From Candidatus Goldiibacteriota bacterium (GTDB lineage Bacteria > Oederibacteriota > PGYV01), in the NCBI GenBank assembly GCA_016937715.1, contig JAFGWA010000005.1, positions 5,040-69,039 on the forward strand: a stretch of 64,000 bases of DNA, written 5' to 3'. A program made the translations under genes and the position numbers. This document shows positions 2,954 to 53,894 of the stretch, piece after piece. Position 1 is the first letter of the stretch. The number at the start of each line of letters is the position of its first letter. The notes beneath the pieces were generated by a model. The model worked only from the letters and a program-made list of their open reading frames with translations, was not told the DNA's origin and did not search any database.

Positions 2954-4401
2954 CCTGTTTTTGTTTCCTGCCTGGGCCTTGCAATTGCCAAAGAATCATC
3001 CGGCACGTTATCCGTTATTACGGAACCCGCGCCAATTACCGAATTTTTTCCTATTTTAACCGGCGCCACAAAAACCGAATTGCTTCCGACATACGCGCCG
3101 TCACCTATGACTGTTTTGTTCTTTTTTACGCCGTCATAATTTGCGGTAATGGTGCCCGCGCCTATGTTGACGTTACTGCCAATTTCCGAATCGCCGATGT
3201 AGCTTAAATGCGCGACGTTGGTATTATTGCCTACAGTGGAATTTTTTACTTCCACATAATTTCCTATCTTGCAGTTATTTCCGATTACAGCGCCCTGCCT
3301 TAAATGCGCCGAAGGCCCTATACTGCAGTTTTTTCCAATTTTTACCCCTGACTTAATTACCGTAAAAGGGTGAATAACAGTTTCATTACCTATTTCAACG
3401 CCTTCTTCAATGTAAACCGTGTCAAAATCAACAATAGTTATACCATTTTCAGAAAGCTTTTCAAGAACTTTTTTATTTCTAATCTTTGCCGCCTCCGCAA
3501 GTTGAGCCCTGCTGTTCACGCCCGCAAGCTCCCTGTAAGGTACATCCACGGGAATAAGCGGCCTGCCTTCAGCGTACATTAAAGCCGCTATATCCGTCAG
3601 GTAATATTCGCCTTTTGCCTTATTTACCTTTATTTTTTCAAGGTTTCTTTCAAGGCTGTCTTTCCTTATTATATATATGCCGCCGTTTATAACTTTAATT
3701 GTCTTTTCGCGGTCATCGGCGTCTTTATCTTCAACAATACGCATTACATAATCTTCGCTGTTTCTTACAATCCTGCCGTAACCGGCCGGATTTTCGGCAA
3801 AAGAGACACCAATTATACCACCGTCACTTTTCTTTGTAAACATTTTAATTAAATAACTGACTGTATCAGCCGTTATAAGCGGCGTATCCCCGCTTAATAT
3901 CATTACCCCGTCTTTTAAGGGAATTTTCGCCTTAATCACCGAATTCACGGCGTCTGCCGTTCCAAGCTGTTCTTTCTGCAGTACAAATCTTATATTTTTT
4001 CCGTTATACCGCGCTGCGGCAAAACTTTTAAGCTGCTGCATATTGGCGCCGGCTACAACGGTGATATCAGAAACCCGCGCTTCAAGGCACGCGTCAATAA
4101 CGTGCGCCAGCATTGGTTTTCCGCTTACTTCATGCAGGACCTTTGTTTTGTCCGATTTCATCCTTGTGCCTTTTCCGGCGGCAAGAATTACGGCGGAAAT
4201 TCCGTTGACGGGTTTAATTATTTTTTCTGTTTTTAAAGCCTCAACACCGTCAGAACTTTCAGCGCGCTCTTTGCCCGAAAAAAACGCGACATCTATCTCC
4301 ATTTCTTTGCCTTTCAGGTTTTTGCCCACTTTGTACTTTTCGTTATTCCGCTTGTTTTTCATTCTGTTATTTACCGCACGATCCGTCTTTTGAATGTTCA
4401 C
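2926..4401 (-). CDS. glmU: bifunctional UDP-N-acetylglucosamine pyrophosphorylase / glucosamine-1-phosphate N-acetyltransferase
   Basis: AVILAAGKGTRMKS nucleotidyltransferase motif plus left-handed beta-helix hexapeptide repeats in the C-terminal half. The 5' end is a GTG start at 4401 that overlaps the upstream ORF; the real start may be Met at about 4302. Confidence 0.88.
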   Translation of the reverse strand: MNIQKTDRAVNNRMKNKRNNEKYKVGKNLKGKEMEIDVAFFSGKERAESSDGVEALKTEKIIKPVNGISAVILAAGKGTRMKSDKTKVLHEVSGKPMLAHVIDACLEARVSDITVVAGANMQQLKSFAAARYNGKNIRFVLQKEQLGTADAVNSVIKAKIPLKDGVMILSGDTPLITADTVSYLIKMFTKKSDGGIIGVSFAENPAGYGRIVRNSEDYVMRIVEDKDADDREKTIKVINGGIYIIRKDSLERNLEKIKVNKAKGEYYLTDIAALMYAEGRPLIPVDVPYRELAGVNSRAQLAEAAKIRNKKVLEKLSENGITIVDFDTVYIEEGVEIGNETVIHPFTVIKSGVKIGKNCSIGPSAHLRQGAVIGNNCKIGNYVEVKNSTVGNNTNVAHLSYIGDSEIGSNVNIGAGTITANYDGVKKNKTVIGDGAYVGSNSVFVAPVKIGKNSVIGAGSVITDNVPDDSLAIARPRQETKTGWVKKRRKK

Positions 4402-4627
4402 AGGCAGAGCAGGATTCTTTGTTTCCTTCTTTTATGTTGTTTTCCTTCCTTTTATAATCGGTCTCATAAAAACCGCTGCCTTTAAAGATTATTCCGCTTC
4501 CGCGGCTTACAAGCCTTTTTATATTGCTGCCGCCGCAATTGGGGCACTTTTCAAAAGCATCATCTTTAATTGACTGTTTGTACTCAAATACACCGCATTT
4601 TTCGCATTGGTAATCATAAGTGGGCAT
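4367..4627 (-). CDS. FmdB-family zinc-ribbon protein
   Basis: MPTYDYQCEKCG...KCPNCGG is the FmdB/CxxC-X-CxxC zinc-ribbon signature; strong RBS GGAGGAAAAAAAGATG. Confidence 0.6.
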   Translation of the reverse strand: MPTYDYQCEKCGVFEYKQSIKDDAFEKCPNCGGSNIKRLVSRGSGIIFKGSGFYETDYKRKENNIKEGNKESCSACEHSKDGSCGK

Positions 4628-4828
4628 CTTTTTTTCCTCCGCTACCTGAATCTTTTATGTTCAAAATCCGCGCATTTTTTGGAATTGGGGCGTTCCGGAT
4701 GCGCGCATGTGGAAGGGTGGTTAAGCCTGCATACGTCGCACAGAAAACCGTTGTCAATTTTTATTAACAGTTTTAAAAACGCGTTCTTAAGCTTTTTTAA
4801 CATTTATCCGCCTTATCTCTTTTGAAGG

Positions 4829-4856
4829 ATTATATTACATACCGCCCAAAAGTCAA
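4829..4856 (-). promoter_or_regulatory. sigma70-type promoter (TTGACT-16-TATAAT) about 200 nt upstream of the fmdB-glmU-prs-rplY-pth gene string
   Basis: On the minus strand the -35 is 4851-4856 and the -10 is 4829-4834. Confidence 0.45.
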
Positions 4857-4874
4857 GAGAACCATAAATAAAAC

Positions 4875-5954
4875 CTATTTTTTCAGTTTTTCGTTTATCT
4901 GTTTTACCAGTTCTTCCGCCATCTTTTTGTTGGCTTTTGCATTTGGATGCCAGTCACAACCCATCAGTTCCTGGGGTACGGGAGATAATGACACAAAATG
5001 CGTTTTATTATCCTTGAAACGTTTTATAATGCTATTTAAATATTCCGGCAGCGGGGCTCCCATTATCGGGCCTGATACGCAGAATATATCCGCCTGCGGA
5101 TAATAACCGCGCACTGTGTTTAAAATTGAAAGGTACCCTTTTTCAAAAAGCTCCCTGTCCGGTTTAGGTTCCGTGGATAAGTCATTTGTGCCAAGGTTAA
5201 TTACCACTATTTCCGGTATCCACGATTTAAAATCCCATTCCAAGGAATCTATATTCATTAAAGTTTTTTTGTAATAATAACCAACGGGCTTATCCGCCGG
5301 AATCTTTGATTCGCCGTAATTTTTTACCACGCCGCGCCCGGAAATGGCAATCATATGCGCCTGGGCGCCCAGGACGCGCGAAGTAATGGAGGCAAAAGAC
5401 AGAAAATTATTCTTATATTTTTTCTCGCTGCCTTCTTCACAGGTAACCGAAGGCCCTTCTATACCGTAACCCACTGTAAGCGAATCGCCTATAAACTCTA
5501 TCTTCTTTGCGGGCTTCACCGGAGGCGGCAATACCTTTGCTTTCTTATCAAGTATGAAACCCTTAAAAACACCTATGCCGTCGTATGCTTCCGTCCTTTT
5601 GGTGATAATTACCGAATGCGCGCCGCGTTTTAGCTTTTTTGCTATGACATACTTTTTTATTTTAGCATCCGCCACAAGCACCGGCATGCGCGTGCCGTCA
5701 ATAAATACATTGTAATGGTTTGCCCCGTCTTCAAGCATTACAGCGCAGTATGTGCCTTCAAAATTAAACGCTATTTCAATGCCGGGCCAGTCAAATTTTG
5801 GCGCGTTTTTATCCGTAAAATCAATACGCCCGATATATGATATACCCGGATCAGACGGCAGCACCGTTTTTACGCCGTTTTTAAAACCGTAAAAAATACC
5901 GCCCGCAAAAGCAGCGGCGCCGATTACCAGAAGAAGCAGTATTTTTTCCATCAT
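4875..5954 (-). CDS. SGNH/GDSL-family hydrolase (esterase) with an N-terminal signal/TM segment and a beta-sandwich domain
   Basis: GDS(L) block IEFIGDSLTVGYG and the late block VINLGTNDL with the DxxH region; N-terminal hydrophobic segment. Confidence 0.65.
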   Translation of the reverse strand: MMEKILLLLVIGAAAFAGGIFYGFKNGVKTVLPSDPGISYIGRIDFTDKNAPKFDWPGIEIAFNFEGTYCAVMLEDGANHYNVFIDGTRMPVLVADAKIKKYVIAKKLKRGAHSVIITKRTEAYDGIGVFKGFILDKKAKVLPPPVKPAKKIEFIGDSLTVGYGIEGPSVTCEEGSEKKYKNNFLSFASITSRVLGAQAHMIAISGRGVVKNYGESKIPADKPVGYYYKKTLMNIDSLEWDFKSWIPEIVVINLGTNDLSTEPKPDRELFEKGYLSILNTVRGYYPQADIFCVSGPIMGAPLPEYLNSIIKRFKDNKTHFVSLSPVPQELMGCDWHPNAKANKKMAEELVKQINEKLKK

Positions 5955-7007: not shown

Positions 7008-7397
7008 TTATAGCACCTGTTTATTGATTTTCAACCCTGTTAATTTACTGACAGCACCGCTGTCCGCGGGCGCAAAATCATACTTCATCAGGCTGCGGAT
7101 TTCCGCCCACTTATACTCTTCATGAACATTAAGCTTTATATCCCCTGCCGTTATTTCGCATAAATAAGAGGTTAACTCTATTGATTCGGATTTTGTTATT
7201 TCAAATTTTTTTCCCACTTTTATATCAAGGTCAAGTTCTTCTTTTATCTCGCGTTTAAGGCAGGCTTTAAGGGATTCGCCTTTTTCCGTCTTGCCGCCGG
7301 GAAATTCCCACTTTAACCCGTGGCTGTCGCCTTTGGCGCGTTTTGCTATAAGTACTTTCTTTCCTTTAATAATTACCGCCGCGGCCACCTTTATCAT
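7008..7397 (-). CDS. NUDIX hydrolase (MutT-like)
   Basis: Nudix box GGKTEKGESLKACLKREIKEELDL. Confidence 0.8.
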   Translation of the reverse strand: MIKVAAAVIIKGKKVLIAKRAKGDSHGLKWEFPGGKTEKGESLKACLKREIKEELDLDIKVGKKFEITKSESIELTSYLCEITAGDIKLNVHEEYKWAEIRSLMKYDFAPADSGAVSKLTGLKINKQVL

Positions 7398-17954: not shown

Positions 17955-20414
17955 TTAAATAAACAGCGTGGCGTCTGACCCGTCCGATGATTCAAGCATT
18001 GACGCGACTCCGCCTATTTCCACGCCGTCAATCAGCTCTTCTTTTTTAATCCCCATAAGGTCCATAGTCATCTGGCACGCCACTATTTTAGCGCCCCCTG
18101 CAATTGCAGCCTGAATAAGTTCTTCCACGCTGCTTATATTATGGTGTTTCATTATTCCCCTTATCATCAATGGCCCCATCCCCGCCATATTCATCTTGGA
18201 AAGGGAAAGTTTTTTGCTTCCGCGCGGCAGCATAAAACCAAAAGCTTTTTCAATAAGATTCTTTTTAAGCCCGCCGGGCTGCTTTGACTTTTTAAGGGCG
18301 TTTAATCCCCAGAACGTAAAGAACATGGTCATTTTGCGCCCCATGGAAAGCGCGCCGTTGGCAATAATAAACGACGCGATTATTTTATCCATATCGCCTG
18401 AAAATACTATCATTGTTTTATCGTGTGACGAAGCCATTGTTTTTATTACCTCCGTTTTTTCGCCGGCTTTTTCTATAACAGCGCTTATTACCCCTTTATT
18501 TGATTCAAGGGAAAATATTTTATTGCCCGTTGCGCGCGCCCATGAACCGACATCATTATAAAACCCCGGGTCTGTCGCCTTTATTTCAAGCCTGTCACCC
18601 GGTCTTATTGCGTCTATTTCGGTTTTAAGTTTCATAATAGGCCCCGGACACTGCAGCCCGCAGGCATTGACGGTAATGACTTTTGAGGAAACAATAACAT
18701 CCTCCCTGCGGTCCTGAGGTTTTAAAACTCCCATCTCCTGCTTTTCATCAAATATACCCTCATTAGACTGCTTGCCTGTTATGAAAGCATATGTAATGTA
18801 TCCGCCTGAAACGTTATATACATTATCATACCCGTTCTGCATCAGTATCCTGGCTGCAAGATATCCCCTTAACCCGACCCTGCAGTAAATCGCGGTTTTC
18901 CTGTCTTTGGGAATTTCATTCATTCTTCTGCGGATTTCATTAAGCGGTATATGTATTGCCCCGGGTATCATGCCAAGGTCAATTTCTTCCTTTTCACGCA
19001 CATCAATAATAAACCATTCATCCCCGTTTTTTACAAGCTCCCCGCAGGTTGTCTGTTTTACCCTTCCTTTAATAATATTCTCCGCTATAAAACCCGCCAT
19101 ATTAAGCGGGTCTTTGGCCGAGGAAAAAGGAGGGGCGTAACAGTGCTCAAAACTAAACAGGTCTTCTATTGTGCCGCCTTTCTGAATAAAAGCAGCGGCC
19201 ACATCAATACGCTTTTCAACGCCTTCATACCCGACCGCCTGAACGCCCAGTATTTTTCCGTCAGAAGGCGAAAACATCATCTTTAAAGACATCTGCGTGC
19301 CGTCGGGATAATAACCGGCATGGTTGTTAGGATGTATGAGAACGCTTTCATAATTTATCTTTTCACTGTCAAGCTGTTTGCTGTTAAGTCCGGTGGCGCC
19401 CGCAGTCATGTCAAATACTTTTAAAACCCCTGTCCCTATAGTGCCCCTGTACTTTGATTTATTTCCTTCCACAATATTATCAGCCACTATTCTGCCCTGT
19501 TTGTTTGCCGGGCCCGCAAGCGGAATAAATACTTTTTTACCAAGTATAGGATTTACAACTTCCACCGCGTCTCCCAAAGCGTAAATATCAGGGTCAGACG
19601 TCTGCATGTATTCATTAACTGCTATCCCCTTTACTCCCAGTTCAAGCCCGCATTCCTTTGCCAGTTTTACTTCCGGCTTTACGCCGATAGAAAATAAAAC
19701 AAAATCAGATACTATTTCCTTGCCGCTGTTTAAAACAGTTTTTATTTTTCCGGAACCTTCATTAAAAGACTTAACCCCGTCGCTAAGGTACAATTCTATT
19801 CCTTTTTGCTGTATATGCCCGTGAAGCTGGGACGCAAGTTCAAAATCCAAAAGCCCCATAACCTGCGGAAGCGCTTCCACTATGGTAACAAACATCCCCC
19901 TGTGGCTTAGATTTTCCGCCATTTCAAGGCCTATATATCCGCCCCCTACCACTACGGCTTTTTGAGGTTTATTATCACGTATATAATTGCTTATTTTATC
20001 CGTGTCTTCCATATTCCGAAGGATAAAAACTTTCCCGCTGTCAATTCCGGGAATAGGCGGTTTTACAGGTTCAGCGCCGGGAGACAGGACAAGTTTGTCA
20101 TATTTTTCAACATATTCGTTGTTTGTTTTAAGGTCTTTTACCCTTACTTCTTTTAACTTTGTATCAACCTTTAATACTTCCGAATTTATCTTTACATTTA
20201 CATTGAACCTGTCCCTGAACGATTCAGGCGTCTGTACAAGTAAATCCTGCCTTTCTGTTATTTCTCCGCCTATATAATAAGGAAGCCCGCAGTTGGCAAA
20301 AGAGACATACCCGCCCCTTTCAAATACTGTTATTTCCGCTGTTTCAGACATCCTTCTTAACCTTGCCGCCGTTGACATTCCTCCGGCAACCCCTCCGATA
20401 ATGACTATTTTCAT
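17955..20414 (-). CDS. four-domain fusion: CoA-disulfide reductase (FAD/NAD(P) oxidoreductase) - rhodanese - TusA-like - DsrE/DsrF-like; persulfide-reductase-type sulfur-trafficking enzyme
   Basis: N-terminal GGVAGG plus the SFANCGLPYY redox-Cys motif; rhodanese active-site YCRVGLRG; TusA CGLQCPGP; a C-terminal DsrE-like block. Confidence 0.8.
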   Translation of the reverse strand: MKIVIIGGVAGGMSTAARLRRMSETAEITVFERGGYVSFANCGLPYYIGGEITERQDLLVQTPESFRDRFNVNVKINSEVLKVDTKLKEVRVKDLKTNNEYVEKYDKLVLSPGAEPVKPPIPGIDSGKVFILRNMEDTDKISNYIRDNKPQKAVVVGGGYIGLEMAENLSHRGMFVTIVEALPQVMGLLDFELASQLHGHIQQKGIELYLSDGVKSFNEGSGKIKTVLNSGKEIVSDFVLFSIGVKPEVKLAKECGLELGVKGIAVNEYMQTSDPDIYALGDAVEVVNPILGKKVFIPLAGPANKQGRIVADNIVEGNKSKYRGTIGTGVLKVFDMTAGATGLNSKQLDSEKINYESVLIHPNNHAGYYPDGTQMSLKMMFSPSDGKILGVQAVGYEGVEKRIDVAAAFIQKGGTIEDLFSFEHCYAPPFSSAKDPLNMAGFIAENIIKGRVKQTTCGELVKNGDEWFIIDVREKEEIDLGMIPGAIHIPLNEIRRRMNEIPKDRKTAIYCRVGLRGYLAARILMQNGYDNVYNVSGGYITYAFITGKQSNEGIFDEKQEMGVLKPQDRREDVIVSSKVITVNACGLQCPGPIMKLKTEIDAIRPGDRLEIKATDPGFYNDVGSWARATGNKIFSLESNKGVISAVIEKAGEKTEVIKTMASSHDKTMIVFSGDMDKIIASFIIANGALSMGRKMTMFFTFWGLNALKKSKQPGGLKKNLIEKAFGFMLPRGSKKLSLSKMNMAGMGPLMIRGIMKHHNISSVEELIQAAIAGGAKIVACQMTMDLMGIKKEELIDGVEIGGVASMLESSDGSDATLFI

Positions 20415-20755
20415 GGTTTTAACCTCCTGTTAATATTTTTTCTGCCTTTTTCATAAATGTTTTTTTTGCGTTCAAGCGTTGACATGGTGATTTCGCCCAT
20501 CATCATGCACACTTTTGGAATTCTTTCATCCGCTATGGAATAAAAAACGCTCTGCCCCTGTTTTCTTGATAAAACAATGCCTTTATTTGAAAGAACGGAC
20601 ATATGCTGCGAAAGGTTTGCCTTTCCCAAACCGGTTTGCTTTATAATCTGGGACGCGCTTTGTTCCTTTACGCAGAGAAGCTTAATAATTTTAAGCCTGT
20701 TGGGATTTGAAAAAGTTTTGCAGATTTCAGACTGCGCTTTAATCAATTCTTCCAT
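20411..20755 (-). CDS. ArsR/SmtB-family transcriptional regulator (three Cys, possibly a sulfide/persulfide sensor)
   Basis: HTH ASQIIKQTGLGKANLSQHMSVLSNKGIV; stop overlaps the start of the CoADR-RHD gene by 4 nt. Confidence 0.8.
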   Translation of the reverse strand: MEELIKAQSEICKTFSNPNRLKIIKLLCVKEQSASQIIKQTGLGKANLSQHMSVLSNKGIVLSRKQGQSVFYSIADERIPKVCMMMGEITMSTLERKKNIYEKGRKNINRRLKP

Positions 20756-20783
20756 AACATTACCGCCTTTTTCGTTTGTTTAG

Positions 20784-20813
20784 TAGTTAACAAATTTATT
20801 AACTGTTAAACTA
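20784..20813. promoter_or_regulatory. imperfect 30-bp palindrome (TAGTTAACAAATTTATTAACTGTTAAACTA) upstream of arsR: candidate ArsR operator
   Basis: Inverted symmetry 30-60 nt upstream of the ArsR start codon. Confidence 0.4.
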
Positions 20814-20846: not shown

Positions 20847-21176
20847 TTATCCTTTTATCATCACAAGCATCATTTTAAATTTCTCCGCCGCTTTAAGGGA
20901 GTGCGGAATATCGGCGGGCATTATGATTGATTCCCCCGCTTTAAGATTTACCTGATTGCCGCCTATCTTTATTTGCGCTTCCCCTTCCGTTACATTTACC
21001 AGCGCGTCAAAAGGCGCGGTATGTTCAGACAGCCCCTGCCCTTTGTCAAAGGCAAACAGCGTTACGGTCCCGCTCTGCTTGTCTATTAAAGTCTTTGAAA
21101 CAACAGCGCCTTCGCCGTATTTAACAGACACGTTTAAATTAAATTTTTCAGCCATGATACGCCTCCTGTTTTTCAA
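20847..21176 (-). CDS. cupin-domain protein
   Basis: Small beta-barrel cupin signature (G..H....EALVNV.EGEA ...IMPADIPHS); 4-nt overlap with ldhA. Confidence 0.65.
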   Translation of the reverse strand: MKNRRRIMAEKFNLNVSVKYGEGAVVSKTLIDKQSGTVTLFAFDKGQGLSEHTAPFDALVNVTEGEAQIKIGGNQVNLKAGESIIMPADIPHSLKAAEKFKMMLVMIKG

Positions 21177-22219
21177 AAACAGATATTATTTTTCTTCTTA
21201 ACGCATGTTTTATTGCACTGATAACATATTTCATTTGTCAGGGTGTGTTTCTCAAAATACTCTTTTATATTGCCAAGTGTGGTATCCGCAATATTTTCAA
21301 CCGCTTCTTTTGTAAAAAACGCCTGGTGCGAAGTGATGATGACATTGGGGAAAGTTAAAAGCCGCGCCAGTACGTCATCACTTAACACCCTGCCGGAAAA
21401 ATCTTCAAAGAAATACTTATCTTCTTCTTCATACACATCAAGCCCCGCGTACCCTATCCTGCCGCTCTTTAATCCGCTGATTAAAGCTTTCGCGTCTATA
21501 AGGCTTCCGCGGCCGGTGTTTATTATCATCACGCCCTTTTTCATCTTTTTGATACTCTGCGTGTTTATCATATGAAAGGTGTCTTTGTTTAAAGGGCAGT
21601 GAAGGGTGGTAATATCAGCTTCTTTATAAATTTTATCCAGAGAAGCGTACTCTATCTTATTTTCAGCGGCGTACTTTTTATCCGGGAAAGAGTCATAGGC
21701 AACCACCTTAACGCCGAACCCTTTAAGTATGTTAATCATCTCCCTGCCTATTTTACCGGTGCCAATTACACCCGCTGTTTTTCCCTTCATGTCAAATCCT
21801 AAAAGCCCGTTTATGGAAAAATTGCCGTCGCGCGTCCTGAAGTATGCTTTATGCACTTTTCTATTAAGGGTCATCATAAGGGCGGCCGCGTGTTCCGCCA
21901 CCGCGTTTGGCGAATATGCGGGAACCCTTGCCACATGAAGGGTATTAAAAGAAGCTTTTAAGTCCACATTATTATAACCGGCGCACCTTAGGGCAATTAG
22001 CTTTACCCCCTGCTTTTTTAGTTCCGCAATTACGGGGGCGTCAATAGTGTCATTGACAAAAGCGCAGACAACATCAGCCGTGCCTGCCATAAAAGCAGTC
22101 TCTTTATTAAGGTGCGGCGGAAGATATTTAATAGTGTACCCGTATTTCTTATTAACGTGGTCAAAATTTACAATGTCATAAGGCTTTGCGTCAAAGAAAG
22201 CCACTTTTATCTTTTTCAT
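21173..22219 (-). CDS. ldhA: D-lactate dehydrogenase (D-isomer-specific 2-hydroxyacid dehydrogenase) with a Cys-rich C-terminal tail
   Basis: NAD-binding GVIGTGKIGR; catalytic-domain layout of D-LDH; the C-terminus ...ICYQCNKTCVKKKNNICF is unusual. Confidence 0.8.
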   Translation of the reverse strand: MKKIKVAFFDAKPYDIVNFDHVNKKYGYTIKYLPPHLNKETAFMAGTADVVCAFVNDTIDAPVIAELKKQGVKLIALRCAGYNNVDLKASFNTLHVARVPAYSPNAVAEHAAALMMTLNRKVHKAYFRTRDGNFSINGLLGFDMKGKTAGVIGTGKIGREMINILKGFGVKVVAYDSFPDKKYAAENKIEYASLDKIYKEADITTLHCPLNKDTFHMINTQSIKKMKKGVMIINTGRGSLIDAKALISGLKSGRIGYAGLDVYEEEDKYFFEDFSGRVLSDDVLARLLTFPNVIITSHQAFFTKEAVENIADTTLGNIKEYFEKHTLTNEICYQCNKTCVKKKNNICF

Positions 22220-22275
22220 ATTATTCCCTCCTTAACATGTATTAATTATATCATAAGCAATTTACGCTTTCGTCT

Positions 22276-22302
22276 TATATATCACTTATTTAGTGATATA
22301 TT
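22276..22302. promoter_or_regulatory. palindromic operator TATATATCAC-N7-GTGATATAT in the ldhA leader
   Basis: Matches the ATCAC-N7-GTGAT core also found at 22453-22469 and 36177-36197. Confidence 0.5.
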
Positions 22303-22452
22303 GACCGCTAAAAAAAGCCGTTTTCACGGCTTTTTATTTTTAAGAAGGGAGCAGGCTGATAAAGGGGTTTGGGAGGGGTATTATCGTAGATACCTGCTCC
22401 CCGTCTTATTGTTATCGTTTTAGTGTGTACCTTTTTAAAGAACCGTTTATGT

Positions 22453-22498
22453 ATCACCTTCTTAGTGATAATTATACTGATAAAATCAAAAAAGTCAA
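22453..22498 (-). promoter_or_regulatory. sigma70-type promoter (TTGACT-16-TATAAT) immediately followed by operator TATCAC-N7-GTGATA, upstream of ldhA
   Basis: On the minus strand the -35 is 22493-22498 and the -10 is 22471-22476; the operator at 22453-22469 abuts the -10, the same layout as at 36177-36225. Confidence 0.55.
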
Positions 22499-23397: not shown

Positions 23398-24057
23398 TTA
23401 TTTAAACACATGCCCTGCTTCACGGAACCATAACGTTAAATCAAGGCCGTCCATCGGGATTTTTATCTTTTTGGAAAATTTTTTCATCTTCTGTTCTGTC
23501 TCAAGGTACTTCGCGTTTGTCAGGCTTTCAGGAATCGCGGGTATTACCCCCATCCTGACAAGGTTCCTTAATATGTGCCTGTCTAAAATGGCAATGTCAT
23601 CGCCGAAACCGATATTTCTTAAAAAATGGCTGGCTTCCTTATAACCGTAACCTTTAATTTTTTTCACAAGCCATTCGCGCATTTCATACGGGTCTTTGAA
23701 CTCTGACAGGAACTCTTTAATTATAAACTTCCCGTTCTTTACGAATTTGTCCCTTGCTTCGCAGGCATATACCGCTTTTTTGTTCTTGAACCTGACGCCG
23801 TTAATTTCTTTAAGCTGCAGAAGCTGCGCCGGCGTGGCGTTTAAGAGAAGTTTTTTCTCCAGTATTTTTTCCACGCACGCCCAACAGTTAACCGCCTTTG
23901 ACTGCGGCGTGAATATGCAGAAAATCATTTCATGCATTATGTCACGCGATGTTCCGTTTTTCCACTTGCTCCTGAAACTTTCAAGGGCGCGGCCTATTGT
24001 ATTCTTCTGTGATACATATATTTTTTTTACAGCGTTTATTTCTGACGCATATGACAT
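23398..24057 (-). CDS. N-glycosylase/DNA lyase (Ogg2-type 8-oxoguanine DNA glycosylase, HhH-GPD superfamily)
   Basis: Length about 219 aa, the HhH region ...IKGYGYKEASHFLRNIG... and the following Asp match archaeal-type Ogg. Confidence 0.65.
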   Translation of the reverse strand: MSYASEINAVKKIYVSQKNTIGRALESFRSKWKNGTSRDIMHEMIFCIFTPQSKAVNCWACVEKILEKKLLLNATPAQLLQLKEINGVRFKNKKAVYACEARDKFVKNGKFIIKEFLSEFKDPYEMREWLVKKIKGYGYKEASHFLRNIGFGDDIAILDRHILRNLVRMGVIPAIPESLTNAKYLETEQKMKKFSKKIKIPMDGLDLTLWFREAGHVFK

Positions 24058-30429: not shown

Positions 30430-30554
30430 TTTAAAAACAAAAAAGCCCCTGTTTTGCAGGGGCTTTTAAATTTATAAGCTCCCTGCGGCGGCATTATCCG
30501 CGTCAGGTTCATAGGGTATAATCTCAGACCGGCTTATTACCGGCCACCCCTGCC
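30430..30554 (-). ncRNA. TPP (THI-box) riboswitch with an intrinsic-terminator expression platform, leader of the thiFGHS operon
   Basis: The minus strand reads GGGGTGGCCGG...CTGAGATTATACCC...GAACCTGACGCGGATAATGCCGCCGCAGGGAGC, the THI-element consensus. It is followed by the hairpin GCCCCTGcaaaaCAGGGGC plus TTTTTTGTTTTT. Confidence 0.75.
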
Positions 30555-30706
30555 TTAATGCTTTATTCTCTATAGAATCTGTTTTTAGAACAAAATTTAG
30601 TAGGAGCAGGCACTTAGGGGGTTTGGGAGGGGGGTATTTGGGAAAAAAGCGCCTGCCCCGTATTTTTATTATACAACTTTATGTTTCATTTGCAATACCG
30701 AATTAT

Positions 30707-32088: not shown

Positions 32089-33138
32089 TTAACCGCGAAT
32101 GGCTCCAATAAACCCGCTTGCGATAACCGTGTTTCCGGCGTAAATAACAGCAAGCTGCCCAGGCGTCACCGCAAACTGCGGTTTTAAAAAAGCAATCTCT
32201 GCTGTTTTGCCCGTTATTTTAACTTTCGCGGCAGCTGCTTTGTGCAGGTACCGTATCTTGACTTTCGCGGCAAAATCTTTTTTACCGTCATCATAAAGCA
32301 GATTAAGCGAATCAATATCAAATACGGAAGAGAAAACCTCTTCTTTATCGCCGATAAATACCTTTTTTTCTTTCGCGTCAATTTTTGTCACATATACAGG
32401 GTGCCCCGCGCTGTAATTAAGCCCCTTGCGCTGCCCTATTGTGTAATTAAAATACGGGGTGTCTAATACTTTAAGCTTTTTATTATCCCCGTCATAAAGC
32501 CCGCCCGGCTCCCCGCTGTATCCGCGCTGCCTTTTTATGAAATCATATGGCGTTTCATTTCCCTGCAAAAAACACACTTCCTGGCTTTCCTGTTTTTCCT
32601 TTAACAGCCCCTGCTTTTTTACTATCTCTTTTATCTCTTTTTTTTCCATGTTCCCAAGGGGAAATATTATGTCTTTAAGTTCCTCTTTTTTCAGGCGCGC
32701 CAGAAAATATTCCTGCGTCTTGCTTTTATCTTTCCCTGCTTTAAGCGCAAATTGTCCGGATTTTTTTCCTATCCTTGCGTAATGCCCGGTCGCAACTTTA
32801 TCATACGAGAGTTCTTTCATTTTTTTAATAAGCGCCGCAAATTTTATTTCCTCATTGCACAGCACGCACGGATTGGGAGTTTCCCCCGAAAGATAAGAAT
32901 CAATAAACGGCTCCACCACTTTTTCCCTGAATTCTTTTTTCAGGTTAAGCGTGTAATGCCTTATACCCAGTTTCGCGCACGCGGCTTTGGCGTCCATGAT
33001 GTCTTCAATGTTGCAGCAGCGGGAGGCTTCATCCCATAAAGAAAGGGTTATTGCGGTCAGTTCATGGCCTTTTTGTTTTAAAAGCCACGCGGCGGCCGTG
33101 GAATCCGCGCCGCCGCTCATTCCTATTATTATTTTCAC
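32089..33138 (-). CDS. mnmA: tRNA 2-thiouridylase
   Basis: PP-loop SGGADS at the N-terminus; MnmA length and the isc context. Confidence 0.9.
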   Translation of the reverse strand: MKIIIGMSGGADSTAAAWLLKQKGHELTAITLSLWDEASRCCNIEDIMDAKAACAKLGIRHYTLNLKKEFREKVVEPFIDSYLSGETPNPCVLCNEEIKFAALIKKMKELSYDKVATGHYARIGKKSGQFALKAGKDKSKTQEYFLARLKKEELKDIIFPLGNMEKKEIKEIVKKQGLLKEKQESQEVCFLQGNETPYDFIKRQRGYSGEPGGLYDGDNKKLKVLDTPYFNYTIGQRKGLNYSAGHPVYVTKIDAKEKKVFIGDKEEVFSSVFDIDSLNLLYDDGKKDFAAKVKIRYLHKAAAAKVKITGKTAEIAFLKPQFAVTPGQLAVIYAGNTVIASGFIGAIRG

Positions 33139-33141
33139 TTT

Positions 33142-33579
33142 TTACTCTTCTTCGCCTTCATGGCCGTGGTCGTGGCCGTCATCTTCTTTTTCCGGAAGCG
33201 GGGGCAGGCCCTGTTTTCTTCTGTTGTAATCTTCTATAGCCCTTTTAATACCGTCTTCGGCAAGTACAGAGCAGTGCAGTTTTTCCGGCGGAAGGCCGTC
33301 TAAAAGCTCCACTATACTTTTATTTGTAACTTCCAGCGCTTTTTCAACCGGCATTCCTTTGATTAAATCCGTAGCCTGCGAAGATGTGGCTATAGCAGCC
33401 ACACAACCAAAAGTTTCAAACTTACAGTCTGTAATTATGCCGTCATCCACCTTTATGTATATCCACATCACATCGCCGCACTTGGCGTTGCCCACTTTGC
33501 CGATTCCGTCCGCGTTATCTATCCTTCCCATGTTCTTTAAATTCTTAAACCTTTCCATTACTTTTTCGGAGTATTTCAT
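33142..33579 (-). CDS. iscU: NifU/IscU-type Fe-S scaffold with an acidic, His-rich C-terminal tail
   Basis: Conserved Cys-containing blocks GCVAAIATS and NAKCGDV. Confidence 0.8.
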   Translation of the reverse strand: MKYSEKVMERFKNLKNMGRIDNADGIGKVGNAKCGDVMWIYIKVDDGIITDCKFETFGCVAAIATSSQATDLIKGMPVEKALEVTNKSIVELLDGLPPEKLHCSVLAEDGIKRAIEDYNRRKQGLPPLPEKEDDGHDHGHEGEEE

Positions 33580-33596: not shown

Positions 33597-34505
33597 TTAC
33601 AGTTCCACCATTTTTTCTATGGGGCGTATCGCGTTTTTTATTGTATCTTCATCAAGAATAACTTCTGTCTTTTCCTCTTCCAGGCACGCAAGCAGGTCGG
33701 ACAATCTGGTTTTTTTCATATTCACGCATACTTTCGCGGAGCCCAGCGAGAAAAATTCCGCGTCAGGCCTTTCTTTTTTCAGCCTGTGTATATGCCCTTC
33801 TTCCGTACCTATTATAAACTGCTTGTCCGGGCTTTCCCTTACATACTTAATCATGCCGGATGTTGACCCCACCACATCAGCCGCATCCACCACTTCGGGT
33901 TCGCATTCGGGATGCACCAGTATTTTGGCGCCGGGATGCGCTTCGCGCGACTTTATTACATCTTCTTTTGTGAACTGATGGTGCACAATGCATCCGCCCT
34001 GATGGATAATAAGCTCTTTTTCGGGAGTATGTTTTTTCACCCAGTATCCAAGATTTTTATCAGGAAGAAATACAACCTGTTTTTGGGGAAGTTTTTTAAC
34101 CACATCTATAGCGTTTGCCGATGTTACGCACACGTCAAGAAGCACTTTTACTTCGGCGTTTGTGTTAACATACCCGGCAAGAGCGGCATCGGGATATTTC
34201 TTTCTGTACTCTTTTACCTCTTCAACCGTAATCGTATCAGCCAGCGGGCATCCCGCGTCCATTCTGGGGATTAATACTTTCTTCTTGGGAGAAAGAATTT
34301 TTGCGGTTTCCGCCATGAACTTTACGCCGCAGAATACAATTAACTGTTCCGGCGCAGCCGCTGTCTTGCGCGCCAGTTCCAGTGAATCACCGGTAAAATC
34401 AGCAATATCCTGAATATCCGGTATCTGGTAGTTATGCGCGACGATAAGCCCGCCTTTTTTTGCTTTAAGTTCCTTAATTTTTGCAATCATTTCATTTTTT
34501 TCCAT
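33597..34505 (-). CDS. nadA: quinolinate synthase
   Basis: NadA family (IVAHNYQ..., three conserved Cys, about 300 aa). Confidence 0.9.
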   Translation of the reverse strand: MEKNEMIAKIKELKAKKGGLIVAHNYQIPDIQDIADFTGDSLELARKTAAAPEQLIVFCGVKFMAETAKILSPKKKVLIPRMDAGCPLADTITVEEVKEYRKKYPDAALAGYVNTNAEVKVLLDVCVTSANAIDVVKKLPQKQVVFLPDKNLGYWVKKHTPEKELIIHQGGCIVHHQFTKEDVIKSREAHPGAKILVHPECEPEVVDAADVVGSTSGMIKYVRESPDKQFIIGTEEGHIHRLKKERPDAEFFSLGSAKVCVNMKKTRLSDLLACLEEEKTEVILDEDTIKNAIRPIEKMVEL

Positions 34506-34536: not shown

Positions 34537-35718
34537 TTATGCTTTATCCCTGTTTTTCCAGAATGGCGACATATTTCTTAACTTTTCAACCGCCGGCGGA
34601 AGCACTGAAAGCACCTCGTCTATATCTTCCTGCGTGGTATATTTGCTTAAGCTGAAACGTATGCTTCCGTGCGCGGTGCCGTGGTCAAGCCCCATTGCCA
34701 AAAGCACGTGCGAAGGGTCAAGGGAACCTGACGTACAGGCGGAACCCGATGACGCGCATATGCCTTCAAAGTCCATCTGTATAAGCATTCCTTCGCCTTC
34801 TATAAATTCTACGCTGACATTAAGCGTGTTTTCCGCCCTGTGTTCAGGATGTCCGTTTAATATAACTTCGGGAATTTCTTCAAATATACCCGCCTGCAGT
34901 TTATCGCGCAGCTGTTTTATTTTTTCATGCGCTTCAGGATTTTTAAAACTCTCCATGGCCAGCTCGCACGCTTTGGCAAGGCCCACAATTCCCGGAACAT
35001 TTTCAGTGCCCGGCCTTTTTCTGTTTTCGTGGTGTCCTCCCTGCATTATAGGGGAAACCTTTACTCCTTTTCTTATGTACAGCGCGCCGATACCTTTTGG
35101 GCCATGAAATTTATGGGCTGATATAGAAACCAGATCAGCGTTCATTGCTTTTACATCCAACGGGTATTTGCCCGCAGCCTGAACCGCGTCGGTGTGAAAT
35201 ATAATATTATGCTCCCTTGCAATTGCGCCTATTTCCGATATGGGTTCAATTGTACCGGTTTCATTATTTACCGCCATTATGGAGATAAGAATTGTATCCG
35301 GCCTTATGGCTTTTTTTACATCATCCGGATTTATAACACCGTATTTGTCCACGGGAAGGTAAGTGACTTCATAACCCTCTTTTTCAAGCGCCTTGCAGAC
35401 ATTTAATACGGCATGATGTTCAATGGCGCTTGTGATTATATGTTTTCCCTTGGATGAATTAGCCAAAGCGGCGCCGCGCACGGCTATGTTATCAGATTCC
35501 GTACCGCCGGAGGTGAATATTATTTCCCTGCTGTCAGCGGCGTTAAAAAACCGCGCTACAACCGCGCGTGATTCTTCCACGGCTTTTCTTGCGTCCTGCC
35601 CAAAGGAATAAACACCTGAAGCATTGGCGTAATTTTCAGTCATATAAGGCATCATTGCCTTTAAAACTTCATCGTCCATTCTTGTTGTCGCGTTATTGTC
35701 CAGATAATGAATTTTCAT
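34537..35718 (-). CDS. iscS: cysteine desulfurase (NifS/IscS class V aminotransferase)
   Basis: PLP-lysine block SAHKFHGPKG and the active-site SSGSACTS. Confidence 0.9.
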   Translation of the reverse strand: MKIHYLDNNATTRMDDEVLKAMMPYMTENYANASGVYSFGQDARKAVEESRAVVARFFNAADSREIIFTSGGTESDNIAVRGAALANSSKGKHIITSAIEHHAVLNVCKALEKEGYEVTYLPVDKYGVINPDDVKKAIRPDTILISIMAVNNETGTIEPISEIGAIAREHNIIFHTDAVQAAGKYPLDVKAMNADLVSISAHKFHGPKGIGALYIRKGVKVSPIMQGGHHENRKRPGTENVPGIVGLAKACELAMESFKNPEAHEKIKQLRDKLQAGIFEEIPEVILNGHPEHRAENTLNVSVEFIEGEGMLIQMDFEGICASSGSACTSGSLDPSHVLLAMGLDHGTAHGSIRFSLSKYTTQEDIDEVLSVLPPAVEKLRNMSPFWKNRDKA

Positions 35719-35733
35719 GTTATATCTCCTTTA

Positions 35734-36159
35734 TTATTTCTGCGGAGTGTGGTTTTCCGCCACTTCAGACAATTTAGTCTGTTTTAAATAAGTGCTTATT
35801 ACTTTATCCAGCCCCACCCATACTTTTCTTATGCCGCACTTTGGCGCGTTGTTACAGGCTTTTATATTAATTACGCATTTGGAAGGCGACACGCCTTTTT
35901 CAACCGCTTCCAGCACATCATAAACCGAAATATCTTTGGGCGCCCTTGCAAGCATAAACCCGCCTTTTTCTCCCTTTACACTTGTAATAATGGAAGCTTT
36001 GCGAAGTGTGACAAATATGTTTTCAAGGTACCTGTTGGATATATCTTCCCTTTCTGATATGTGTTTTATGGAGACAGGCTTGTTGCCATTCTTTAAGTAG
36101 GACTCCGCAAGATGGGTCAAAGCCCTTAAAGCGTACCTGCCTTTTGTTGATACATTCAT
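35734..36159 (-). CDS. Rrf2-family transcriptional regulator (IscR-like, three Cys)
   Basis: MNVSTKGRYALRAL... HTH; Cys cluster CVINIKACNNAPKC; first gene of the isc-like operon. Confidence 0.8.
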   Translation of the reverse strand: MNVSTKGRYALRALTHLAESYLKNGNKPVSIKHISEREDISNRYLENIFVTLRKASIITSVKGEKGGFMLARAPKDISVYDVLEAVEKGVSPSKCVINIKACNNAPKCGIRKVWVGLDKVISTYLKQTKLSEVAENHTPQK

Positions 36160-36176: not shown

Positions 36177-36225
36177 TTATCACCATTCTTGTGATAATTA
36201 TATATTTCTTTAACGATAATGTCAA
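36177..36225 (-). promoter_or_regulatory. sigma70-type promoter (TTGACA-17-TATAAT) immediately followed by palindromic operator TTATCAC-N7-GTGATAA, upstream of the rrf2-iscS-nadA-iscU-mnmA operon
   Basis: On the minus strand the -35 is 36220-36225 and the -10 is 36197-36202; the operator at 36177-36197 has the same TATAAT-TATCAC-N7-GTGATA layout as 22453-22476. Confidence 0.6.
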
Positions 36226-36333
36226 GATTAATTTAATCCCGGTATGAATTTTATATTATCACCGAAATGGTGTGGAATCAAGGGGAAAGAGCGGAAGAAA
36301 CGAGGGACGGAAGAAAAGCAAACATCAAATCAA

Positions 36334-53865: not shown

Positions 53866-53894
53866 ATTAATACCCCTTGGGTGATAATTTATTT

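Follow-up and report, generated by a model that had tools for sequence, protein, structure and literature searches.

A TATCAC-N7-GTGATA palindrome as the likely operator of an Rrf2-family regulator of iron-sulfur assembly, a C-rich RNA and ldhA-cupin in a Goldiibacteriota genome

Introduction

Why should one promoter-operator module stand in front of the genes for iron-sulfur (Fe-S) cluster assembly and again near a gene for lactate dehydrogenase? The question is raised by a 64-kb stretch of DNA (hereafter, the window) from contig JAFGWA010000005.1 of a Candidatus Goldiibacteriota bacterium. Here, the palindrome TATCAC-N7-GTGATA directly follows the -10 box of two promoters and occurs a third time upstream of ldhA. 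An earlier note, made from the letters of the window, had described these sites and suggested that one repressor, the IscR-like Rrf2 protein encoded beside the first of them, binds all three. In our assessment, it is quite likely that the palindrome is the operator of this Rrf2-family regulator (35734-36159, minus strand), which would repress its own isc operon, respond to Fe-S clusters, and control both a small RNA and the ldhA-cupin pair.

Three operator sites in the window

On the minus strand, positions 36225-36178 read TTGACA-17-TATAAT-TATCAC-aagaatg-GTGATA, followed by an AGGAGG ribosome-binding site and the rrf2 start codon (ATG at 36159). The -35 hexamer TTGACA (36220-36225) and the -10 hexamer TATAAT (36197-36202) of the rrf2-isc promoter were read from the sequence and are conserved in orthologous loci. 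The -10 hexamer abuts the first operator (O-isc, 36178-36196), which spans about -6 to +13 of the predicted transcription start. The second module, TTGACT-16-TATAAT-TATCAC-taagaag-GTGATA, occupies 22498-22452 of the same strand; its operator (O-sRNA, 22452-22470) also abuts the -10 box and is identical in one related locus, L111. The third perfect palindrome, TATCAC-taaataa-GTGATA, lies at 22298-22280 (O-ldh, 22280-22298), and L111 keeps its half-sites with a changed spacer. Both modules and the third palindrome could be read back where the earlier note had placed them.

The core ATCAC-N7-GTGAT occurs exactly three times in the window and in none of 100 dinucleotide-preserving shuffles. That is, the motif is not there at random frequency. 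Allowing up to two mismatches adds only two sites (53320 and 53868), and the resulting total (5, against 1.44 expected) was also reached by one of the 100 shuffles; these two additions are consistent with chance. A weight matrix was then trained solely on 21 orthologous promoters of other genomes (see below), with the window excluded from training. It scored O-ldh at 29.6 bits, O-isc at 26.8 and O-sRNA at 24.6, while the best other site in the window reached 12.3 bits and the maximum across 50 shuffled windows was 17.2. The matrix therefore singles out the same three sites. Chance or a repeat element as their source is ruled out: the sites are missing from the shuffles, stand only at promoters and differ in their spacers.

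The weaker candidates can be dealt with briefly. The runner-up (53868-53886, TAATAC-N7-GTGATA, two mismatches, 12.3 bits) lies in a 29-nt gap between two minus-strand genes and overlaps a ribosome-binding site; it is probably a chance match because its score falls inside the shuffled-sequence range. A site at 7011 (10.6 bits) was set aside for the same reason. Upstream of O-isc, by 79 bp, there is a possible but uncertain auxiliary site, CCACAC-N7-GTGATA (36257-36275); it has three mismatches, scores 3.8 bits and is kept in just L001 and L130, the closest relatives.

Conservation upstream of rrf2 and across metagenomes

A scan of one genome per species yielded 22 loci, from Goldbacteria, FCPU426 and similar metagenome-assembled genomes, encoding a relative of the window's Rrf2 protein (47-91% identity). 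In 21 of these, TATCAC-N7-GTGATA, perfect or with one mismatch, is placed 34-138 nt ahead of the start codon and either abuts the -10 box of the upstream promoter or overlaps it by one base. This promoter is TTGACA-17-TATAAT in most of the 21 loci, with deviating hexamers in a few. The comparison of orthologous promoters that the earlier note had proposed thus comes out in favour of the site: the palindrome is kept, and the seven spacer bases and the flanks drift from locus to locus. The exception (L022) encodes an rrf2 paralogue with the helix GRYLETIF and has another palindrome, TTATC-N3-GATAA (about 5860-5880), at the same promoter position. In a Spirochaetota locus (L142) the promoter falls in an assembly gap, so it gave no operator readout.

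Where the loci are long enough to tell, most have the operon rrf2-nifS-nadA-nifU-mnmA. In the window, all on the minus strand, rrf2 is followed by a nifS cysteine desulfurase gene (34537-35718; TIGR03402, 581.6 bits, above cut-off), nadA for the Fe-S enzyme quinolinate synthase (33597-34505; profile matches and a position conserved in orthologous operons), a nifU/iscU-type scaffold gene (33142-33579; PF01592, and TIGR03419 at 185.1 bits, slightly below the cut-off of 187.9) and, as the final gene, mnmA for a tRNA 2-thiouridine synthase (32089-33138; profile match). The placing of nadA between nifS and nifU, seen in most sufficiently long orthologous operons (L001-L021), recalls the nifS-nadBCA link of B. 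subtilis.

We also scanned metagenomes with the pattern TTGAC-N16-19-TATAAT-N0-1-ATCAC-N7-GTGATA, in which 22 bases are specified. If the collection comprises about 10^12 bases, a rough estimate puts the matches due to chance at about one. We obtained 56, of which 44 lie upstream of the following genes and elements. Rrf2 genes follow in 27 cases, including some whose proteins are only 41-49% identical to that of the window; tusA-dsrE-nifS-nifU(-rrf2) follows in seven (in L081, then rrf2-nfu-fur-rubrerythrin) and a NifU-C/Nfu carrier of 74-75 aa in six. One match each precedes the small RNA alone (L086), the small RNA plus ldhA (L111), msrAB (L109, from the same metagenome as the nearest relative) and a LigB/Memo-like gene. 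Moreover, L003 has a second operator site ahead of a ferredoxin-like gene. In the regulon as a whole, nifS, nifU and nfu serve cluster assembly, and tusA, dsrE and mnmA serve sulfur relay; nadA encodes an Fe-S enzyme, msrAB is for methionine sulfoxide repair, and ldhA would provide an NADH sink that is independent of Fe-S clusters.

The remaining 12 matches stand at a termite-gut insertion-sequence-like element, transposases and a HicB-like (toxin-antitoxin-like) gene. In particular, several termite-gut loci (L076, L082, L094, L105, L117, L124 and L127) have a repeated TATAAT-TATCACCGAAGAGGTGATA element ahead of a helix-turn-helix, transposase-like open reading frame, and this element is unrelated to the Rrf2 regulon.

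The protein that reads the palindrome

The product of rrf2 (141 aa) belongs to the Rrf2 family by PF02082 (E 8.7e-35, 120 bits, cut-off 30) and by the TIGR00738 superfamily model (125.7 bits, cut-off 73.3), and it passes NCBIfam at the superfamily level only. Its predicted structure (pLDDT, the predicted local distance difference test, 87.7) has the Rrf2 fold, with the lowest confidence, C-terminal tail aside, in the cysteine loop 91-100. The closest relatives of the protein are found in Goldbacteria, candidate division FCPU426 and metagenome-assembled genomes (MAGs) labelled Spirochaetia.

What sets the protein apart is its recognition helix, ISNRYLENIF. The stretch SxRYLENIF (residues 41-49) is common to all 33 close homologues, in which S41, R43, Y44, L45, E46, N47, I48 and F49 are invariant and residue 42 varies (mostly N). 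Solved Rrf2 relatives have SYLEQL, TYLEQL, PYLEQL or HYLEQL instead. In E. coli IscR, the residues S40, E43 and Q44 contact bases, and they align with R43, E46 and N47 here; as judged from the alignment, this might account for a new DNA specificity.

Helix and operator also travel together. The operator accompanies rrf2 in all layouts, both as the first gene of its operon and as an internal gene of a tusA-led one, and distant Rrf2 proteins linked to the motif have the helices TRYLENIF, PRYLENIF, LRYLENIF or ERYLENIM. For example, L143 combines ERYLENIM with a one-mismatch site in the canonical module. Rrf2 proteins with a KYLEQI or EFLEQIF helix (37-46% identity), which have diverged to a similar degree overall, had no such site upstream. 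Two loci with a variant helix have a variant palindrome at the same promoter position: VRYLEHIM goes with TATTAC-N7-ATGATA in L144 (3947-3965), and VRYLEHLM with ATACTA-N6-TAGTAT in L145 (about 2620-2640). Finally, the site has the canonical geometry of an Rrf2 operator (a 6-7-6 palindrome of 19 bp, abutting the -10 box). Because of its position, its recognition helix, these negative and variant cases and the operator geometry, the Rrf2 protein (35734-36159) appears as the most likely binder of the palindrome.

Could rrf2 merely be a target of some other factor, such as Rex, a Fur- or PerR-type protein, the neighbouring ArsR or an XRE/cI-type repressor? Rex classically controls ldh genes, ldhA-cupin has an arsR gene downstream of it, and phages have operators with the core ATCAC-N7-GTGAT, presumably recognized by their own repressors. 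Yet we hold this to be very improbable, as the motif follows rrf2 across operon layouts and lineages and changes with the recognition helix of Rrf2. The earlier note had kept a Fur/PerR/Rex-like factor as its alternative while remarking that the half-site matches none of the E. coli IscR, Rex and Fur consensus sequences; the remark is borne out, and the alternative is not supported. The sites are 3 to 10 positions off the consensus sequences of Rex, Fur, PerR, NsrR and IscR types 1 and 2. In the two promoter regions, the best IscR type 1/2 matches miss 7-10 of 24-25 positions, and Rex (TTGTGAA-N6-TTCACAA or TTGTTAA-N4-TTAACAA) shows 4-6 mismatches out of 14. The motifs of IscR types 1 and 2, Rex, Fur, PerR, NsrR and CRP/FNR are ruled out on this ground, as their consensus sequences do not fit. 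ArsR (20411-20755) is ruled out as well, with a TTGACA-17-TATAGT promoter of its own and a different palindrome.

A Rex-like palindrome, TTGTTAACTACTAAACAA (20776-20793), lies just downstream of the arsR-CoADR promoter TTGACA-17-TATAGT and is one base off the clostridial-type Rex consensus TTGTTAA-N4-TTAACAA. It may be a Rex or an ArsR operator. Because of this separate Rex-like site, Rex-type sites seem to look different in this organism, which also speaks against Rex as the reader of TATCAC-N7-GTGATA.

The phage sites have a different architecture from the Rrf2 site. They belong to a phage family seen in the viral loci L023-L075, of which many come from IMG/VR sample 3300045988, and read TTGACA, then TATCAC-ccaatga-GTGATA, then TTATA. 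The operator is fully palindromic, with a conserved palindromic spacer, and lies between the -35 and -10 boxes on the opposite strand, often in two copies per contig.

A model of the switch and the signal it may sense

With the Rrf2 protein as the reader, a dimer would place one recognition helix in each half-site. At the rrf2 and small-RNA promoters the site runs from the last -10 base over the transcription start, so a bound protein would block RNA polymerase there. This would give autorepression of rrf2-nifS-nadA-nifU-mnmA and repression of the C-rich small RNA, and the third site would govern ldhA-cupin. It is the position of the operator that suggests autoregulation.

The signal would most likely be Fe-S cluster occupancy on three cysteines. 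When clusters are plentiful, the protein would bind; when iron or sulfur shortage or oxidative damage limits them, it would leave the DNA. Its release should allow more assembly machinery, sulfur carriers and repair enzymes to be made, together with a lactate dehydrogenase that needs no Fe-S cluster and would drain off pyruvate and NADH. Cluster sensing is our best guess, with a CymR-like or thiol-based signal as the possible alternative. C95, C102 and C108 are invariant in the 33 sequences and align with C92, C98 and C104 of E. coli IscR (4hf0 chain).

In the alternative, Rrf2 still binds the palindrome but senses cysteine or O-acetylserine through a CysK complex, as CymR does, or thiol oxidation or alkylation, as HypR and SifR do. 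The closest fold match of the model is B. subtilis CymR, followed by T. potens IscR and E. coli IscR, with RsrR also among the best, and some sources name the relatives 'cysteine metabolism repressor'. A cysK-like PALP gene follows rrf2 in the distant L143 and L144 (same or variant operator), a PAPS-reductase-like gene, by sequence reading only, follows it in L113, and msrA or msrAB in the regulon hints at oxidative stress; the replacement of an IscR cluster ligand, discussed below, points the same way. On the other hand, the three cysteines keep a near-IscR spacing, and aligned B. subtilis CymR lacks that stretch. No cysK adjoins rrf2 in the window or the 21 close loci, the protein scores well below the CymR cut-off, and a core regulon of cluster assembly (nifS, nifU, nfu) fits cluster feedback. 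On balance, we regard sensing without a cluster as rather improbable and retain Fe-S occupancy as the signal.

The small RNA and ldhA-cupin

The earlier note had placed the same module in front of rrf2-isc and of ldhA. The first half holds. The second module (22498-22452), however, lies about 230 nt from the ldhA start codon (22219), with a stable hairpin and an intrinsic terminator in between, and appears to drive a terminated RNA of about 155 nt rather than ldhA directly. Likewise, the third palindrome does not lie in the ldhA leader, as had been supposed, but 3' of the terminator and 5' of the gene's own extended -10 promoter.

The promoter of the small RNA (TTGACT-16-TATAAT, 22471-22498, minus strand; -35 at 22493-22498, -10 at 22471-22476) reached 11/12 in the promoter scan and is conserved in L111, L138 and L086. 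The RNA (22309-22464, minus strand) is predicted at both ends. It folds into a long hairpin (22342-22408) with a large unpaired C-rich loop carrying ACCCCUCCCAAACCCC, followed by a GC-rich stem with a U-run; the latter is a bidirectional-looking intrinsic terminator (22312-22335, minus strand), conserved in L111. The fold energy is -39.8 kcal/mol (z = -4.25). Homologues of the hairpin in L111, L086, L138, L139, L140, L141, L003, L083 and L015 fold alike, and at two positions of the stem both partners have changed in a compensatory way (A-U to U-A and C-G to U-A). This comparison used per-sequence folds and an anchored pair table, as MAFFT/RNAalifold had misaligned the stems. L111 keeps both operators, the hairpin, the terminator and the extended -10 box, with changes in the 5' part of the RNA and the spacer of the third site.

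Rfam returned no family at gathering score except a TPP riboswitch elsewhere in the window, and a permissive search gave noise. Against RsaE/RoxS (RF01820), the RNA scored 15.1 bits (gathering score 79, E = 8.9) and is not a member. The C-rich loop could nonetheless pair with Shine-Dalgarno sequences, as RsaE/RoxS and IsrR do. Across 63 translation-initiation regions, its mean duplex energy was -9.5, against -8.9 ± 0.6 for shuffled loops.

Downstream, ldhA (21173-22219, minus strand) encodes a D-lactate/2-hydroxyacid dehydrogenase by profile matches, and its product matches, with 100% identity, a protein of a MAG listed by NCBI as Candidatus Goldbacteria. A Cupin_2 gene, predicted to be co-transcribed, follows at 20847-21155 (minus strand); the ATG at 21155 gives 102 aa, the orthologue length, and the longest open reading frame starts at 21176. 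The proximal ldhA promoter is predicted from an extended -10 box, TGaTATAAT (22245-22253, minus strand), which was read from the sequence and is conserved in L111. O-ldh begins about 10 nt 3' of the small-RNA terminator.

The ldhA-cupin pair is conserved in L139, L140, L141 and L111. Four ldhA orthologues (L138-L141, 67-73% identity) all carry the operator, and the small RNA or its hairpin always lies just upstream. In L138, promoter-operator, C-rich hairpin and ldhA follow in series. L139 has one site for the small RNA and a second in a canonical TTGACA-17-TAATAT module ahead of ldhA-cupin. In L140, the operator, in a module with a slightly different -10 box (GTAATA), precedes fer4-ldhA-cupin, with the small RNA just upstream and the isc operon a few kb away on the same contig; L141 has the same layout and one mismatch in the operator. 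The co-regulation of ldhA and cupin proposed in the earlier note thus gains from an operator at (fer4)-ldhA-cupin in four further lineages and, judging from these sequences, the unit is a conserved member of the regulon.

The window itself leaves room for a different arrangement, in which Rrf2 activates ldhA and the 'small RNA' acts in cis, as a 5' leader or attenuator of ldhA, and not in trans. O-ldh is centred near -51 of an extended -10 promoter that has no good -35 box, and E. coli apo-IscR activates suf from a comparable upstream position. The hairpin of L138 is a leader, with no T-run terminator before ldhA; the loop CCCUCC could pair with the ldhA Shine-Dalgarno GGAGGG; and a second copy of the hairpin stands in the 5' leader of the TPP riboswitch. 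By contrast, in the FCPU426 relatives the site abuts or overlaps the -10 box of a TTGACA-17 promoter (TAATAT in L139), which is repressor geometry. Both the window and L111 have a strong terminator and a further promoter between the RNA and ldhA. The RNA of L140 and L141 likewise ends at a terminator of its own, and the fer4-ldhA-cupin operon downstream of it has a separate promoter. Furthermore, in C. perfringens ldh is co-induced with the isc genes, not oppositely regulated (PMC2940859). This arrangement seems unlikely to us, though less so than the other alternatives, and the preferred reading remains repression of the small RNA and control of ldhA-cupin, perhaps by repression as well.

Several minor observations concern these loci. 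DNA looping between the second and third sites is not supported, as their distance varies: 172 bp in the window, 167 bp in L111 and 438 bp in L139. In L138, AATCAC-N7-GTGATA (3641-3659), one mismatch off the operator, lies just past ldhA. In L141, from an FCPU426-like MAG, a second Rrf2 paralogue with the helix VKYLENIM (4617-5081) is encoded downstream of ldhA-cupin.

Weighing the evidence

A number of points weigh against an Fe-S-responsive Rrf2 repressor as the common controller. First, the protein stays below the equivalog cut-offs for IscR (109.2 against 207.55 bits for TIGR02010, 87.3 against 275 for PRK10857) and for CymR (NCBIfam NF047409, 90.2 against 195). Second, the fourth IscR ligand, His107, aligns with Arg111, nearly invariant in the alignment, so cluster binding is not assured. 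Third, the correlation between helix and motif is partly phylogenetic, with few independent contrasts. Fourth, O-ldh lies at -42 to -60 from the best-predicted ldhA promoter or, alternatively, abuts a weak -10 box (CAATAT; TAATAT in L111), and from the former position a regulator could activate, repress or act as a roadblock. Fifth, 12 of the 56 metagenome matches are unrelated to the regulon. Sixth, because a phage family uses a similar core, ATCAC-N7-GTGAT alone is not unique to this regulator. Lastly, the related genomes were covered as stretches of about 10 kb, which leaves the regulon incomplete.

The claim of a single repressor, Rrf2, has strong comparative support. It is carried by the 21 of 22 orthologous promoters, the operator at (fer4)-ldhA-cupin in four further lineages, the helix link and the Fe-S/sulfur character of the regulon. 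It needs amending in two respects: the second module appears to serve the small RNA rather than ldhA directly, and the third site is outside the classical repressor position relative to the best-predicted ldhA promoter. The sites themselves, their conservation, their geometry at the promoters, the content of the regulon and the tie between motif and helix are shown by the analysis; that the protein binds, in which direction it regulates ldhA, that it senses a cluster and what the RNA does are what we infer from them.

A bolder reading goes further. The xRYLENI clade of Rrf2 proteins, so far uncharacterized, might be the master Fe-S/sulfur switch of several candidate phyla, directly redirecting Fe-S-dependent pyruvate oxidation to D-lactate and driving a trans-acting, Fe-S-sparing anti-Shine-Dalgarno RNA. 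We consider this a speculative possibility, more doubtful than not. If true, the small RNA would be a functional counterpart of RyhB, IsrR or RoxS, under IscR-type rather than Fur- or Rex-type control.

Comparison with known systems

The principle, IscR-type autoregulation, is known, but this DNA site and gene set appear to be undescribed: a literature search for the half-site together with Rrf2 or IscR found no paper describing this operator. With E. coli IscR, the system shares the Rrf2 winged-helix fold, the place of the regulator as first gene of an Fe-S biogenesis operon, an operator overlapping its own promoter, three cysteines at equivalent positions and the inferred feedback logic. It differs in the DNA motif (type 1 and type 2 sites there, TATCAC-N7-GTGATA here), the helix (LSYLEQL there, NRYLENI here), His107 (Arg111 here), the operon (nifS-nadA-nifU-mnmA here) and the regulon, which here adds ldhA-cupin and a small RNA. 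In short, it works like IscR autoregulation, yet the protein is no IscR equivalog by score, fourth ligand or DNA motif.

The clostridial Rrf2 proteins (C. perfringens Cpe1786, C. difficile CD1278 and C. acetobutylicum CAC1675) have a similar operon of rrf2, cysteine desulfurase, scaffold and mnmA/trmU genes. In C. perfringens, cysteine limitation induces the Rrf2-iscS-iscU-trmU operon and ldh together, and the authors proposed that lactate dehydrogenase relieves the need for Fe-S-dependent pyruvate oxidation (PMC2940859). Loss of iscR raises lactate in C. difficile (bioRxiv 10.1101/2020.03.04.977868), and the predicted clostridial promoter element has been described as CymR-like (PMC3828012). 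In the literature covered, however, we found no direct ldh operator for these proteins, whereas here ldhA and the regulator gene carry the same operator; nadA inside the operon and a small RNA in the regulon are further differences.

HypR, SaiR and SifR bind 19-bp palindromes, TGTAA-N9-TTACA (PMC9218516). As here, the operator is two-fold symmetric, 19 bp long, suited to an Rrf2 dimer and overlaps the target promoters (PMC9218516), but the half-site differs (TGTAA, not TATCAC), sensing relies on a single thiol, and the targets are redox and quinone genes rather than Fe-S assembly. The small RNA, in turn, resembles the C-rich RsaE/RoxS and IsrR of Firmicutes and the iron-sparing RyhB and FsrA: it is short, ends at a terminator, has unpaired C-rich stretches that could pair with Shine-Dalgarno sequences, and has a promoter that would be under a metal- or redox-responsive repressor. 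It differs in having one large C-rich loop in a single long hairpin and a predicted Rrf2 site in place of Fur, Rex or ResD control.

The locus matters in several ways. The 19-bp site, the recognition-helix signature and the regulon amount to a regulatory code that can be put to the test in bacteria no one has cultured. Fe-S cluster supply and the choice of fermentation route would be linked directly at the level of transcription, a link for which clostridia have so far offered co-expression only. The helix-operator pairs (RYLENI with TATCAC, RYLEH with altered palindromes) are a ready system for studying how Rrf2 proteins read DNA. In addition, for phyla with no known riboregulator, the C-rich RNA under operator control is a candidate.

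Neighbouring features

A second copy of the C-rich hairpin (loop CCCCCCUCCCAAACCCCC) lies at 30603-30660 on the minus strand, behind a promoter with its -10 box at 30668-30673 and no TATCAC operator. It sits between this promoter and the TPP riboswitch (30463-30561) that precedes thiF-thiG-thiH-thiE, an arrangement also found in L001 and L111. Directly upstream of the small-RNA promoter is a gene for an 8-oxoguanine DNA glycosylase (23398-24057, minus strand), as it is in L138 (1605-2264). Adjoining ldhA-cupin on the other side, positions 17955-20755 (minus strand) encode an ArsR/BigR-like regulator and, after it, an 819-aa protein in which CoA-disulfide reductase, rhodanese, TusA and DsrE domains are fused; this unit has the look of a module that handles persulfide or sulfide under a regulator of its own.

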